From positions 4,069 through 68,068 of the forward strand of contig CAZBRP010000008.1 in NCBI GenBank assembly GCA_964494765.1: a stretch of 64,000 nucleotides of DNA. Direction: 5' to 3'. Both the position numbers and the translations under genes were made by a program. This document shows positions 28,279 to 34,257 of the stretch, piece after piece. The notes beneath the pieces were generated by a model, which saw only the letters and a program-made list of their open reading frames with translations, did not search any database and had not been told where the DNA came from. Every line of letters begins with the position of its first letter. Within the stretch, counting starts at the first letter, position 1. This stretch comes from an uncultured Candidatus Saccharibacteria bacterium. Its GTDB lineage: Bacteria; Patescibacteriota; Saccharimonadia; Saccharimonadales; UBA4665.

Positions 28279-29115
28279 ATGTTCAAGCGTAAGCGTTTAT
28301 TTAAAGCACTCGTTGTAAGCGCACTTGTGGTTTGTGGCTTTATGACGATGCCCGCTAACGCCCAAGAAGTTACCCAAGGGTATCAGAGCGAAACAACTTT
28401 GCAACCGGGTATTATCGTGCGGCTTAAATCGGGCGATGCCACAATTGTTGAGCCGCTCAACCAAGATAGCGAAACAAACATGCTTGGAGTGGTGGTTGCC
28501 CCTAACGATGCTCCTGTGTCGCTGTCAGGCGACCAGGCAAAGGCGCAGACTTATGTTGCTACCTACGGCCAGTACGATGTACTGGTGAGCAACCAGAATG
28601 GCCCTATTAAGGCCGGTGAGAGCATTACGATATCGTCAATTGATGGCGTGGGTATGAAAGGTGACACAGGCCACGAAGTTGTGCTTGGTAAGGCCGTGGA
28701 AGCCTTTGACGGCAAGAGCGATGCCCAGAGCACATCTATTTTGACGACTTCTGGTGGTAAGCGAACGGTAACTATTGGCCGTATCCAGGTAAATATTAAT
28801 GTTGCCCACAATCCTGATTACAAACCGGTGGCGGTTTCGGCTGGCGTTCCTGGCTGGTTGGCCCAGGCGGCAGATGTGGTTACCGACAAACCAGTGGGCG
28901 CGGCACGTATATATGCTGGACTGGTTGTTCTTATTTTGTGCACATTTATCGCTGGTAGTATTTTGTACGCGGGTGTGCGAACAAGTATGATTGCAATCGG
29001 CCGCAACCCTCTGGCTAAAAAATCTATCGTTCGTAATTTGTTGCAAGTAATTTTAATATCACTGATTATTTTCACAATTGGCTTAATTGCGGTATATTTA
29101 TTATTGAAGATCTAA
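28279..29115 (+). CDS. Secreted-domain protein with a C-terminal two-TM hairpin resembling an ATP synthase c subunit but lacking the carboxylate
   Basis: Signal peptide ALVVSALVVCGFMTMPANA and an extracytoplasmic domain of about 180 aa. The C-terminus reads IYAGLVVLILCTFIAGSILYAGVRTSMIAIGRNPLAKKSIVRNLLQVILISLIIFTIGLIAVYLLL (compare the c-subunit loop (I/A)ARQPE). It sits directly upstream of the ATPase genes. Confidence 0.6.
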   Translation: MFKRKRLFKALVVSALVVCGFMTMPANAQEVTQGYQSETTLQPGIIVRLKSGDATIVEPLNQDSETNMLGVVVAPNDAPVSLSGDQAKAQTYVATYGQYDVLVSNQNGPIKAGESITISSIDGVGMKGDTGHEVVLGKAVEAFDGKSDAQSTSILTTSGGKRTVTIGRIQVNINVAHNPDYKPVAVSAGVPGWLAQAADVVTDKPVGAARIYAGLVVLILCTFIAGSILYAGVRTSMIAIGRNPLAKKSIVRNLLQVILISLIIFTIGLIAVYLLLKI

Positions 29116-29151
29116 AATGCTTGTGTTTTGAGGGATGGGTAGTTTTATAGC

Positions 29152-29781
29152 ATGACATTAGGGTGGCTGGTACTTATTCTTAGCTTCATATGGGTGGGCG
29201 GCGCTGCCTTTATCTATTTGATTATTATGCTTCACCGCGCTGGCGGTGGTGGCAAGCGTGCGTCTGCGCTGAGCGAGTCCGTCCAGCGCTCTGCCGAAGA
29301 AGACGTAGATCATATCTTTAATGAGGAATTCCGCGAAGAGCTTCGTAACAGGGGCCGCTTGCACTTTGAGAAGATTTTGGGCGAAAATGCTATGTTCTTG
29401 CAGCAGGACTTGCGCCTTACGACGTCGCAACTTAACGACTATATGAAACAGGAGATCAGCAAAGAACTTAAAGAGGCATTTGCTAATTACGAAAGTGCTA
29501 TTGGTGATGCTAAGCAGCTGGCTGTTGAATCTATCGAAAAGACTAAAACAGCTATCGACGAGCAGCGCCAAGCCATGAGCGCCCAGCTAGAAAAAGAAAT
29601 TGCCGCCGAAAAAGTACGGCGCATTGCCTTGTTCGAGAACAACATGGCTCAAGTGGTTAACCACTATGTACTGGCCGCTGTTGGCAACCAGATTGATCTT
29701 AACGACCAGCTCGAGTATATCTTGGGTGAGCTTGAGGTTAACAAGCTGGCCATAATTGAGGACATTACAAATGGAGCCTAA
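29152..29781 (+). CDS. ATP synthase b-like stalk subunit (one TM plus a long coiled-coil)
   Basis: N-terminal TM WLVLILSFIWVGGAAFIYLIIML followed by a charged helical region. It occupies the position of atpF before delta. Confidence 0.45.
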   Translation: MTLGWLVLILSFIWVGGAAFIYLIIMLHRAGGGGKRASALSESVQRSAEEDVDHIFNEEFREELRNRGRLHFEKILGENAMFLQQDLRLTTSQLNDYMKQEISKELKEAFANYESAIGDAKQLAVESIEKTKTAIDEQRQAMSAQLEKEIAAEKVRRIALFENNMAQVVNHYVLAAVGNQIDLNDQLEYILGELEVNKLAIIEDITNGA

Positions 29782-30349
29782 ACAGGCTGCGCCCGTGGCT
29801 GGTGCGGTTGCTGGCCAGTCCGCTGCTGGGGCAGTGCAGCCAGCCCCTGCCGCAAAGGAAGCGCCAAAAATGGTGCTGCCTACCTTAGTTTTTGGCGCAG
29901 TAGAAATACATCGTTTACAGCGTGAAATAGAGTCCTTAGAAGATTTTTTACAGCAGGCGGCCTTGAGGCAGACCGGCGAAAAAAATGCCGAAGCTTTGCC
30001 GCGTGTTAGCCGTTTGCTAGATGCCTTGGCCTCAGAAAATAGCTGTAATTTACTCAAGAAAGCAGAGCGCGAGCGTTTAGTGCAGTTTTTGCAAACCGTT
30101 AGCCAGTCTGCACCATCTATCCATATGAGTTTTGCTACTGATCCGTCGGCAGCCTTTATCGCCAAAATTGTTAGTTGGCTGCGCGCAAATATTCACCCTT
30201 TGGTGCTTTTGCAGATTGGCCTCCAGCCTTCAATTGCTGCCGGCACTGTTATTCGTACCACTAATCATGTGTTCGATCTTAGTTTGCGTAGTCACTTTGA
30301 CGCACAAAAGGCTCAGCTTATTGCGTCACTTGAAAGTGGTGCCAAATGA
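29756..30349 (+). CDS. atpH: ATP synthase delta (OSCP)-like subunit
   Basis: C-terminal pattern [32 protein letters not shown] resembles the delta C-terminus (..GG..v..gd.v.D.S.r..L). ATGA overlap with atpA. The start may be ATG 29771. Confidence 0.5.
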
Positions 30350-31773: not shown

Positions 31774-32621
31774 GCCGTCTGCAAGAAGTTGCCCGTCAGC
31801 GAGCAACTATGAGCACTATTGTAAACCTAACGAGCGTGTTTGAGGGCTTGGCCAGTATGCGTATTTCGCAAACTAAAAACCAGGTGTTGCAGTCACAGCA
31901 GTTCTTTAACGAGCTCTGGCAAATGTATTCCCAGGTTCGTGTGGATAATCTGTTCCGCTTTGGCCGCACCAAAGCCGACCGAATTACCGACAAGCAATTA
32001 TTTATTGTTGTAACTGCCGAGGGTGGCTTTAGTGGCGATATCGACCAAAAGCTTATCAGTTTGATGCTTAAAGATTTTGACCCCGAAAAACAAGACATTA
32101 TTGTTATTGGACACCACGGCGCCATGCAGTTGATTCAGTCGGGTGTAAGCTTTAAGAAGTATTTTGCGTTGCCTTCTCGCGACCGTAACATTAACGTGCA
32201 GCCCTTAATTAAGGAGGCTCGAAGTTACAAGAGTACCATTGTGTACTATCAAACATACGTGTCACTCATGTTCCAGGATGTAAAACGCATTGAGCTTAAT
32301 ACGGCCGTACAAGAAAAGGGTAAGCGTGTGAGCGAAAGTGAAGATGTGATTAGTGAAGCAACCTACATTTTTGAGCCTTCCGCGTTTGACGTTATGGCTC
32401 ATCTAGAACGTTCGATGATGGAAATCGCCCTCAGCCAGGTAATTCTGGACTCAAAATTAGCCCAGTACGCCAGCCGTTTTAGGGCCATGAGCATGGCTAA
32501 CGATAAGGCCGATGAGTGGTATGGCGAACTTACGAGTAAATACAACCGCACTAAGCGCCGTACGCAAGATGAGCGGCTTAAGGAAATTACCAACGGTCTA
32601 CGAAAAACGAGGGCAGCATGA
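31770..32621 (+). CDS. atpG: F1 ATPase gamma subunit
   Basis: 283 aa between alpha and beta. The C-terminal helix [17 protein letters not shown] matches the gamma terminus pattern (ITxEl.EI..G). ATGA overlaps on both sides. Confidence 0.75.
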
Positions 32622-33922
32622 ACCAGGGATTAATCCGATCAGTTAAAGACTTGTTGGTAACGGTGGTATTTGACGACCAATTGCCCGATATCCAAGAAGT
32701 TATTGTTGTTGAAGAAACCGGCACGCCGCTGTTGGTAGATAGTTTGCAGCCTGGCGGGCACGCTGTATGCCTTAATATTGAGTCCGACTTGCGATTGCAA
32801 AAGGGTATGCATGTTAAGCGTACTCAAAAGAGTATTGAGATTCCATTAGGTGATGAAATGATTGGCCGTGTTGTGGATGCACTTGGCAATCCGCTCGATG
32901 GTCTTGATCCTGTAGACGACACCAACATGGCTCACCGCAAAATCTTCCAATCGCCAGCACGAACCACCGACTTTAGCACCAAGGCTCCGGAGATTTTAGA
33001 GACAGGTATTAAAGTAATCGACTTCTTTGCACCATTTGTTAAAGGCCGCAAAATTGGTATTGTGGGCGGTGCTGGCGTAGGCAAGACCGTGCTCACTATG
33101 GAGCTTATTCATAATGTTGCTCAAAGTGGTTCAGGGCTTAGCTTCTTTACCGGTATTGGTGAGCGTATTCGCGAGGGCCACGAATTATACGAAACGCTTA
33201 AAGAGCGCAACCTGCTTAAAAATACCTGCATGTTCTTTGGCCAAATGAACGAAAACCCAGTACGTCGCTCTATTATTGCGCTCAGCGCGGTAACACTTGC
33301 CGAATATTTCCGCGACGAAAAAGGCAAAGATATTTTGTTCTTTGCCGACAACATGTACCGCTATGTGCAAGCCCGCAACGAGGTTGCTACTATGCTTGGC
33401 CAGGTACCTTCTGAGGGTGGTTACGAGCCAACTATTTTCTCTGACGTAAAGATGTTGCAGGACCGTTTGAGTTCAACTAGTAGCGGCTCTATCACGGCTG
33501 CCCAGACTATTTATGTGCCGGCTGACGACATGAGCGACCCAGCGGTGCAAATGATTCAGCACGAGCTTGATTCGGTGATTGTATTGAGCCGTGCGGTTGC
33601 AGAGCAGGGTATTCGCCCGGCAGTTGACTTGTTGCACACAACATCATCACTGCTAACGCCAGAAGTTGTTGGCGATCGCCACTATGTACTGAGCGTGCAG
33701 GTACAGGCTTTGCTGCAAAAATATGAATCACTCAAGTCGATCATCGCCATTATTGGTGAAAATGAGTTATCACCGTCCGATCGCGCCGATTACGCCAAGG
33801 CCAAAAAACTCATTGCCTACTTCTCGCAAAACATGTTTGTCATGGAAGACCTTAACGGCTTGCCCGGTGAATTTATTCCCCGCGACCAAATGCTCAAGGG
33901 TGTTGAGGAGATCATTGTATGA
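32618..33922 (+). CDS. atpD: F1 ATPase beta subunit (divergent, short)
   Basis: Walker [19 protein letters not shown] (catalytic Glu region), Walker [22 protein letters not shown], and a DELSEED-equivalent ENELSPSD. 434 aa. Confidence 0.92.
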
Positions 33923-34257
33923 CCGCGCTGCGCACTAACGCCTCCACGGGTGAAATCGAGAGCCTGCCTGATTCGCCGCAGGGCTCACACGACAAGGACA
34001 CAAAAGCCACTCCCACTATGCGCATCAAGGTCTATTCGCCATTCAAGACCTATTTTGACGCCGACGGCTACAGTATATCTGCCGTAAACGCTACAGGGCC
34101 CTTTGATATTTTGCCTCGCCACCACAACTTTTTAACACTACTAAGCCCTGGCGAAATGAGCATTGAGGCAGTACGCGGTGGTCAACAGCGCATTCGCATT
34201 TCTGGTGGCCTTATGCACGTTAAGGCCGACAAGGTTACAGTCTTCTTAGACATCTAA
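33919..34257 (+). CDS. atpC: F1 ATPase epsilon subunit (beta-sandwich domain only)
   Basis: 112 aa. ATGA overlap with atpD. The pattern [39 protein letters not shown] matches the epsilon N-domain (G.fgiLp.H.p.it.L). Confidence 0.7.

Follow-up and report, generated by a model that had tools for sequence, protein, structure and literature searches.

What does an operon do that encodes an F1-type ATPase head, and neither subunit a nor canonical subunit c? F-type ATPases are textbook ion-coupled machines, and the question is raised by a cluster at positions 28279-34257 of a 64,000-nt stretch of DNA (hereafter, the window) from an uncultured Candidatus Saccharibacteria bacterium of the order Saccharimonadales. 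The window lies on contig CAZBRP010000008.1 (C8) of a 1.29-Mb assembly from a soil metagenome (genome G000; 31 contigs, 78% complete), and its DNA is found in soil metagenome runs. The answer that we favor, with a probability of roughly 0.6, is that the cluster encodes a second, ATP-hydrolyzing F1-like machine that is not coupled to ions and that carries a surface subunit derived from subunit c.

An F1-type operon headed by a membrane protein

The cluster comprises seven open reading frames (ORFs), all intact, closely packed and oriented in one direction:

28279..29115, + strand: mem1, a 278-aa protein with signal peptide, ectodomain, linker helix and C-terminal two-helix hairpin
29152..29781, + strand: candidate b-like peripheral stalk, assigned by its atpF slot and architecture
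29771..30349, + strand: delta/OSCP-like protein, assigned by NCBIfam and by an orthologue profile searched against PDB
30346..31773, + strand: alpha-like subunit, 475 aa (PF00006, 3.7e-67)
31770..32621, + strand: gamma-like central stalk, 283 aa and full length (PF00231, 4.7e-29, residues 4-276)
32618..33922, + strand: beta-like catalytic subunit, 434 aa (PF00006, 6e-65)
33919..34257, + strand: epsilon-like subunit (PF02823, 1.5e-15, residues 34-110 of 112)

An earlier inspection of the letters and ORFs (the sequence-only reading) had proposed the gene order b-like, delta-like, alpha, gamma, beta, epsilon, and Pfam and NCBIfam matches bear this order out from delta (a weak match) to epsilon. 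The other features it described are also there, namely a 434-aa beta that keeps its catalytic signatures, a 475-aa alpha with the P-loop GDGKSGKT and an epsilon reduced to its beta-sandwich domain. Its statement that the genes overlap by ATGA throughout holds at four junctions (delta/alpha, alpha/gamma, gamma/beta and beta/epsilon) but not between b and delta, where the delta start is the ATG at 29771 (MEPKQAA..., common to relatives) and the overlap with the end of b is 11 nt. The absence of atpB and atpE, which it had also pointed out, proved to extend well beyond this genome: we found no subunit a (PF00119) or canonical c inside the cluster, and no gene for either within 7 kb at 80 related loci. 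Scans for promoters and terminators returned no more sites than in shuffled sequence.

A separate canonical F1Fo operon in the same genome

One account of an operon lacking these two genes is that they reside elsewhere, an alternative that the sequence-only reading had itself raised. A search of the assembly located a single subunit a (2378-3208) and a single canonical c (2042-2254; 71 aa, with an Asp in its second transmembrane (TM) helix, TM2) on contig C10, where they are followed by b, delta and a canonical alpha (P-loop GDRQTGKT) that runs off the contig end. Contig C18 in turn begins with the C-terminus of a canonical beta (DELSDED), together with a full-length epsilon that has its helical C-terminal domain. 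Subunits a and c are thus present elsewhere, but within an operon of their own, and they do not account for the window cluster. They are parts of a different, complete enzyme, which makes the window cluster a second F1-like ATPase, paralogous to it. Its alpha and beta are 39% and 44% identical, respectively, to the canonical copies of the genome, and the canonical beta fragment on C18 is 78-88% identical to canonical betas of the same order.

Two artifacts were considered in this connection. Contamination by C10 or C18 is unlikely given the latter identity, and contamination or misassembly of the window cluster was rejected because its synteny holds in 80 species. The canonical operon is itself broken over C10:1-1053 and C18:3-653, with the 3' part of atpA, the whole of atpG and the 5' part of atpD missing from the assembly. 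Between canonical atpD and atpC lies a single-copy spacer of ~600 bp (C18:654-1250; GC 56% versus 49%), which contains a 206-aa ORF of odd composition and has no match in Rfam; in most relatives atpD and atpC abut.

A predicted c-type hairpin fused to an ectodomain

In the atpE slot stands mem1, the key part of the cluster, whose product begins with a Sec-type signal peptide (cleavage at about ANA/QE), continues into a ~180-aa beta-rich ectodomain (about residues 30-180) and ends in two TM helices linked by IGRNPLAK. The G-R-N-P-L-A loop is invariant in 106 mem1 homologues, and canonical c subunits of the same order carry (A/S)(V/L/F)GRNPE in the corresponding loop. At the TM2 column of the ion-binding carboxylate, family members have Leu or another hydrophobic residue, and an acidic residue occurs in none of those aligned.

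Profile searches connect this hairpin to F-type subunit c. When 16 hairpins from several classes of the candidate phyla radiation (CPR) were combined into a profile and searched against PDB, the best eight matches were all F-type c subunits (E 3.4e-5), with the whole hairpin in register; after removal of the G383 sequence, the one that matches Pfam by itself, the best six matches were still c (best 8.4e-4). Run against 401 CPR genomes translated in six frames, the hairpin profile recovered the fused genes first and then dozens of c genes of 74-115 aa, at E 1e-11 to 1e-8. The G383 sequence is the C-terminal hairpin of a 2,575-aa protein, and it passes the Pfam cut-off for ATP-synt_C (PF00137; 27.5 versus 24 bits). 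Structure prediction with AlphaFold2 gave the mem1 hairpin a predicted local distance difference test (pLDDT) score above 90, and the top Foldseek matches of the model were c subunits (TM-score 0.74-0.91, root-mean-square deviation 1.0-1.7 Å, 22-23% identity). Significance in the profile searches needed tails from several CPR classes (profiles A3 and A7): taken as a single sequence, the 90-aa tail of mem1 had no Pfam match and gave a 20-residue BLASTP match to the genome's own c at E 0.001, and no NCBIfam model matched mem1. Together, these profile and model comparisons show the hairpin to be homologous to, and derived from, F-type subunit c.

Membrane orientation agrees with this assignment. 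Both termini of canonical c lie outside the cell, and its loop faces gamma/epsilon; the topology predicted for mem1, with a secreted domain fused to the N-terminus of c, therefore fits. The ectodomain has a different affinity. An initial AlphaFold2 run with 22 sequences gave it a pLDDT of 30-60, and a repeat with 106 sequences raised this to 80-90. Searched against BFVD, it matched 32 phage proteins at E<=1e-3 (best 2.7e-9), including a preneck appendage protein, proteins with the Mtd N-terminal domain, tail proteins and DUF2190, and its PDB matches were phage capsid decoration proteins. A separate observation is that the same domain (about residues 25-150 of mem1) occurs near the start of giant Patescibacteria proteins of 1,000-6,900 aa, for example at G321:C2:73783-74193 and G315:C5:58718-59005.

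Head and stalk subunits

The beta-like subunit aligns end to end with the beta of Bacillus TA2.A1 (2qe7_D, E 8.5e-113) and contains GGAGVGKT, the catalytic Glu in GIGERIRE and the Walker B Asp (FFADN). The last ~28 residues of the canonical form are absent, and the DELSEED loop reads NELSPSD; these features hold across the clade of 20 F1-like betas described below. The window beta has no N-terminal extension. In alpha, the P-loop GDGKSGKT conforms to a clade consensus of GD(S/G/N)K(S/T)GK(S/T), and the Arg finger SVSRVG to the pattern SV(S/T)R(V/I/A)G found in all clade copies. The P-loop, GERxRE, the Walker B Asp and the alpha Arg finger were present in 20/20 F1-like pairs examined, and judged by these motifs the head looks CATALYTICALLY competent. 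Alpha is ~30-40 aa shorter than canonical at its C-terminus, and at its N-terminus a short conserved RHFDxLV, which may still bind the delta-like protein, stands in place of the longer delta-binding helix of canonical alpha. Epsilon consists of a variable 32-aa N-terminal tail and the beta-sandwich, and the C-terminal inhibitory helices are absent. That these helices and the acidic DELSEED loop are gone is consistent with an enzyme meant for hydrolysis.

The delta-like protein matched OSCP weakly in Pfam (1.3e-3) and NF004402 below its cut-off (6.3e-7); a profile of 10 orthologues reached E 2.2e-5 against PDB, where the ~20 top matches were all delta/OSCP. This match falls mainly on the C-terminal, b-binding domain, and the N-terminal part is short and divergent, with an Ala/Pro-rich insert in the window genome. 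The protein encoded at 29152..29781 has one N-terminal TM helix followed on the cytoplasmic side by an extended helical region, in which the block nearest the membrane (FNxEFREELRNRGRLHFEKI..ENAMFLQQDLRLTTSQLN) is unusually conserved, and its gene stands in the atpF slot at 80/80 related loci. From position and architecture, we infer that it is a b-like stalk. Every subunit missed the NCBIfam cut-off for its canonical counterpart: beta with 443.9 versus 462.85, alpha with 396 versus 484 (417 versus 554), gamma with 86 versus 194 (TIGR01146), delta with 25 versus 57.5 and epsilon with 46 versus 67.

Phylogeny and spread

Maximum-likelihood trees of CPR sequences and E. coli united 20 F1-like betas in one clade and 19 F1-like alphas in another, each with an SH-like approximate likelihood ratio test (SH-aLRT) value of 99. 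Both clades include members of other CPR classes, stand apart from the canonical clades of the order and have clearly longer branches. The sequence-only reading would have withdrawn its proposal on finding canonical atpB and atpE elsewhere in the genome together with alpha and beta inside ordinary F1Fo clades; the former are present, and the window alpha and beta fall outside the canonical clade of the order.

Within the order, the system is highly conserved, which points to purifying selection. The nearest beta homologues comprise more than 100 clusters named Candidatus Saccharibacteria or Saccharimonadales, with 78-98% identity and lengths of 432-436 aa. The order mem1-b-delta-alpha-gamma-beta-epsilon is kept, as far as each contig allows, at 80 named species-level loci, one of them in a closed genome (CP025011); the comparison of gene order across relatives that the sequence-only reading had recommended thus shows it kept in 80 named Saccharibacteria species as well as in other CPR classes. 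The alpha/beta genes number four (canonical plus F1-like) in 15 of the 22 other genomes sampled from the order and three in 1, where a contig end cuts one copy; 3 genomes have the canonical pair only and 3 have none. Beyond the order, the mem1 family numbers 6,377 clusters at 50% identity with E<=1e-3 (1,337 at E<=1e-10), and of the 401 CPR genomes sampled, 65 or more contain a frame of at least 200 aa that ends in the hairpin.

In at least 14 CPR genomes of other lineages (94-99% complete), there are exactly two alpha/beta genes, located beside the hairpin gene, and there is no PF00119 subunit a; no canonical c appears among the hairpin-profile matches listed for these genomes, and none was found in the two on which PF00137 was run. 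They include most of the sampled members of one family (f53), and in one genome, G326, the operon encodes a hairpin protein, b-like, delta-like, alpha, gamma, beta and epsilon, as in the window. Since these genomes carry the F1-like set with no a and with no canonical c among the matches listed, borrowing of housekeeping a and c subunits is ruled out, and models that invoke a hybrid ring are unnecessary.

Several further arrangements were seen along the way. At one locus of the same order (L095; G383:C1:90000-109000), the 2,575-aa hairpin protein, a 2,424-aa protein and four small ORFs lie upstream of a very divergent alpha-gamma-beta set. Second paralogues of the hairpin-ectodomain protein occur away from F1-like genes at G087:C7:31371-32150, G344:C3:837-1631 and G169:C93:195025-195804. 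Two genomes (G022:C1:438084-440340 and G193:C14:15699-17966) combine an F1-like system with another pair from the alpha/beta family, in frames of 604-614 and 473-485 aa and with no subunit a; these frame sizes suggest an A/V-type ATPase instead of F1Fo.

The Pam pilus neighborhood

Downstream of the F1-like cluster, the window contains a complete Pam operon (35540..40665), separated from epsilon by a single gene on the opposite strand:

34415..35443, - strand: type II membrane protein with a beta-helix (bactofilin-like repeat) ectodomain (Bactofilin, 2e-4, a weak match)
35540-36283, + strand: PamT (NCBIfam CPR_pilus_PamT, 325 bits, cut-off 240)
36416-37519 and 37524-38597, + strand: two Pam pilins (CPR_Pam_pilin_C, 92-164 bits, cut-off 55)
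38643-39656, + strand: membrane-anchored chaperone-like protein with a WxLIP_PGBD domain (Pfam, 34 bits)
about 39751-40665, + strand: PamR (CPR_pilus_PamR, 420 bits, cut-off 300)

Adjacency of the F1-like and Pam genes is kept in several families and at most of the 80 loci, and a neighbor of the 34415..35443 type stands beside epsilon at most of these loci and in several families of the order. This neighbor, which possibly has a C-terminal lectin-like domain, probably corresponds to the 'tail fibre-like protein' that Troman et al. (bioRxiv 10.64898/2026.03.03.709456) described in the pam neighborhood. These authors solved the structures of Pam filaments, modeled their assembly without trans-envelope machinery, and found genes for an 'ATP synthase' and for the tail-fibre-like protein to be central in the pam neighborhood network, which they read as ATP production. 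In light of the results above, the 'ATP synthase' genes beside pam are the F1-like paralogue and not an ATP synthase.

All of the genomes of the order with strong Pam pilin matches (11/11) have the F1-like system. Linkage extends to another CPR class: in G385, genes for a hairpin protein, a Pam-pilin-like protein and two membrane proteins lie ahead of b-delta-alpha-gamma-beta and share its strand. Also encoded in this string is a protein that has a signal peptide and, at its C-terminus, a TM helix, and at the same locus (L050; G385:C2:15000-27000) two hairpin-ectodomain paralogues flank the F1-like genes. Over the 401 CPR genomes, hairpin and Pam matches overlap moderately (odds ratio 2.9, p 4e-4, with kinship ignored). 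The association between the F1-like system and Pam is real and not obligate.

On the other side of the cluster, the sequence-only reading had drawn attention to a divergent lipoprotein gene and a non-canonical membrane protein. The membrane protein is mem1, a c derivative that it had not recognized as such. The lipoprotein gene (27525-28196, - strand) is not part of the system, because it is present at 1 of the 80 related loci; it is apparently a lineage-specific insertion between a cysteine desulfurase gene and mem1. Further upstream, between tatD and the cysteine desulfurase gene, a conserved hypothetical protein of 125 aa (25970-26347) keeps its position in most relatives.

Proposed mechanism and alternative explanations

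How might such a complex work? In the machine that we propose, an F1-like ATPase with a c-derived X0, hairpins would assemble into a c-ring-like oligomer, and their invariant GRNPLA loops would dock the foot of gamma/epsilon as in F1Fo. With no ion site and no half-channels of subunit a, an ion gradient would therefore neither drive the complex nor be built by it, and the enzyme would act as an ATPase only. ATP hydrolysis in beta would turn or torque gamma-epsilon and the ring against a b/delta stator, such that the crown of ectodomains outside the membrane would move and deliver mechanical work at the cell surface. The likeliest targets within this order would be the neighboring Pam pilus and tail-fibre-like protein; elsewhere in CPR, they may be the giant surface proteins that share the ectodomain or the hairpin.

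Several points weigh against this proposal. The steps of ring formation, gamma/epsilon contact and rotation are ones that we infer, and the stator is the weakest of the scheme: there is no subunit a, the b-like anchor is single-pass, and productive rotation is not guaranteed. The b-like protein itself matched Pfam ATP-synt_B at E 1.1, and its profile search against PDB returned apolipoprotein-type coiled-coil noise and no b. Built from a single family, the hairpin profile (A2) reached E 0.44 against PDB, with an hhalign alignment of 17 columns at 85% probability. The hairpin gene lies outside the operon, yet is retained, in five genomes of the order, and five genomes of the order have the F1-like system with no Pam pilin. 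Among the 401 CPR genomes, counted by the hairpin matches listed, 28 have both the hairpin fusion and Pam, 37 the hairpin alone and 70 Pam alone. A search for transcription data returned soil DNA metagenome runs only, and no RNA. Finally, it is possible that the complex works as a non-rotary conformational 'push-pull' actuator, a mode proposed for the mycoplasma Type 3 enzyme, or that it is no more than an anchor.

A more specific possibility, to which we give limited credence, is that the complex is the energized base of the Pam pilus, in which ring and crown would anchor, rotate, extend or retract the donor-strand-exchange filament. The conserved pam adjacency across families of the order speaks for this, as do the pilin-like gene inside a same-strand string in another class (G385), the presence of the F1-like system in every strong-Pam genome of the order, and the network centrality of 'ATP synthase' and tail-fibre-like genes reported by Troman et al. 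in 2026. The association is nevertheless partial, given the 37 hairpin-fusion genomes without Pam pilins and the 70 Pam genomes without a listed hairpin fusion; the assembly model of Troman et al. needs no trans-envelope machinery; and adjacency within one order may reflect inherited gene order.

The non-ion-coupled surface machine that we favor can also be elaborated to full rotation, with the F1-like motor spinning or torquing an ion-blind ring so that a phage-fibre-like extracellular crown cranks, winds or resets surface filaments. We regard this as rather doubtful. The clients it would name, Pam pili and the tail-fibre-like protein in Saccharimonadia and giant fiber proteins in other classes, are tentative to the same degree, and so is the further suggestion that the X0 protein of mycoplasmas, with its signal peptide and two TM helices, is a convergent or very distant version of the same device.

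Alternatively, the head might operate with no ring rotation at all, as an unfoldase or export ATPase resembling FliI/FliH/FliJ or as a cytoplasmic ATPase tethered by b, with the hairpin serving as a docking site only. F1, FliI and type III secretion system (T3SS) ATPases are homologous, which lends this idea some plausibility, as does a stator that has no subunit a. A 2026 preprint by Mulkidjanian et al. likewise speculates that truncated F-type operons are unfoldases. We nonetheless judge it unlikely: the cluster encodes a full F1 set (an alpha/beta heterohexamer, gamma, epsilon and delta) along with a c-derived hairpin whose invariant loop would face gamma/epsilon, which suits an F1-c-ring interface, and no export-gate genes are linked to it.

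Less probable still is that the hairpin protein is a minor subunit of the canonical c-ring, decorating or regulating the normal synthase within a hybrid ring while the F1-like head is soluble or bound elsewhere. Hybrid c-rings have a precedent in Acetobacterium woodii, the GRNP loop of the hairpin is the same as that of the order's canonical c, and five genomes have their hairpin gene apart from the F1-like operon. Against this, the hairpin gene heads the F1-like operon in 80 species, genomes without canonical c or a keep it beside the F1-like genes, and three genomes of the order with the canonical operon only (G263, G357 and G396) have no hairpin gene.

That the window simply encodes an ordinary ATP synthase, with a and c merely elsewhere, we consider very improbable; canonical a and c do exist on another contig, but they come with their own b, delta and alpha (and with beta and epsilon on C18), the window alpha and beta are 39-44% identical to those copies and form a separate clade, and in 14 other CPR genomes the F1-like set stands without any a and, among the matches listed, without a canonical c. 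A decaying duplicate without function can be dismissed almost outright: although the long branches, the shortening of alpha and beta and an epsilon deprived of its C-terminal domain might be read as decay, the ORFs are intact and translationally coupled, the catalytic residues are invariant, and hundreds of orthologues are conserved across a phylum of genome-reduced organisms.

Novelty and significance

We found no literature on F1-like ATPases of Saccharibacteria or Patescibacteria. Two 2026 preprints touch the locus without recognizing its nature: that of Troman et al., and that of Mulkidjanian et al., which mentions 'truncated operons of unknown function' and 'unusual neighbourhoods of beta homologs from CPR'. 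The sequence-only reading had suggested that such an arrangement would be new for this type of organism; this stands for the nature of the system but not for its occurrence, as the system is widespread in CPR and its adjacency to pam already appears in a 2026 preprint. An F-type ATPase re-purposed as a non-ion-coupled surface machine is thus widespread in CPR and undescribed as such in the searchable literature.

Several implications follow from the proposal. It would place an equivalent of the mycoplasma F1-like enzymes in another phylum, one that is very large and for the most part uncultured, and the form found there is more readily interpreted: a subunit c minus its ion site, minus its a partner and plus an extracellular domain. 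Annotations of 'ATP synthase' in CPR genomes are unsafe for metabolic inference, with some lineages having the ion-blind version as their sole such genes, a point that bears on the long debate over how CPR bacteria generate a membrane potential. The complex would also be a candidate energy source or actuator for the surface organelles that CPR bacteria use in episymbiosis, and the 'coupling of Pam pili to ATP production' put forward in 2026 can be re-read in these terms. Whether a c-ring can act as a transmembrane drive shaft becomes a directly testable question, because the locus appears to be present in cultivated Saccharibacteria (Ca. Mycosynbacter amalyticus).

Comparison with known systems

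Among described enzymes, the closest analogy is the one that the sequence-only reading had drawn, to the F1-like X0 clusters of mycoplasmas, and it holds in that the window cluster, too, is without a and without a functional c. Placement relative to the mycoplasma Type 2/3 and N-ATPase families rests here on NCBIfam and PDB scores. The Mollicutes Type 3 'F1-like X0' ATPase (M. mycoides MSC_0618-0624 / MMCAP2_0575-0581) is needed for antibody cleavage by the MIB-MIP system and is thereby functionally tied to cell-surface proteins (PMC3369863, PMC12994834). In both cases, the bacterium is genome-reduced and depends on a host, and in addition to a true F1Fo operon it encodes a further F1-type alpha/beta/gamma/epsilon set that comes without a or canonical c. 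In both, too, the set includes a membrane protein that starts with a signal peptide, has an extensive non-cytoplasmic region and ends in a pair of TM helices with a short loop between them. The CPR cluster differs in having delta and a b-like stalk, which mycoplasmas lack; in lacking the 12-TM protein and the small cytoplasmic protein of the seven-gene mycoplasma cluster; in an epsilon without C-terminal helices; and in a 2-TM protein that is demonstrably related by profile to c, which has never been shown for MSC_0620, the two being compared here by architecture. Scores against the MSC_0618/0619 families fall well short of their cut-offs (NF045936, 265.5 versus 520; NF045934, 377.9 versus 570) and are lower than those against canonical atpA/atpD.

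The Type 2 G1-ATPase of M. mobile (MMOB1610-1670; PDB 9io5), a gliding motor, likewise puts an F1-like motor to work for surface machinery and not for ion coupling. The window beta, however, does not have the N-terminal dimerization extension, and there is no sign of twin-motor chains. Against this beta, the G1 beta scored 289 bits, compared with 340-380 bits for canonical betas, and the scores against the MMOB1660/1670 families were far below cut-off (NF045863, 332 versus 600; NF045858, 335 versus 850).

With canonical F1Fo (atpBEFHAGDC), the cluster shares the c-b-delta-alpha-gamma-beta-epsilon order, homologous subunits, catalytic residues and a c-type hairpin with an R-N/Q-P loop. It departs from this plan in having no subunit a and no TM2 carboxylate, in a c fused to a ~180-aa ectodomain behind a signal peptide, and in its shortened alpha, beta and epsilon and degenerate DELSEED loop; all NCBIfam equivalog cut-offs are missed. 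N-ATPases (alternate F1Fo; atpDCQRBEFAG) also form a second F-type operon beside a housekeeping enzyme, but they keep a and an ion-binding c, have another gene order and have no delta; the alt_F1F0 models scored 399, 342, 31 and 23 bits against cut-offs of 752, 750, 282 and 100 (399 for TIGR03305 and 342 for TIGR03324). On these comparisons, the window system is not an N-ATPase, and it is best regarded as a functional analogue of the mycoplasma Type 2/3 F1-like ATPases and not as a member of their families.

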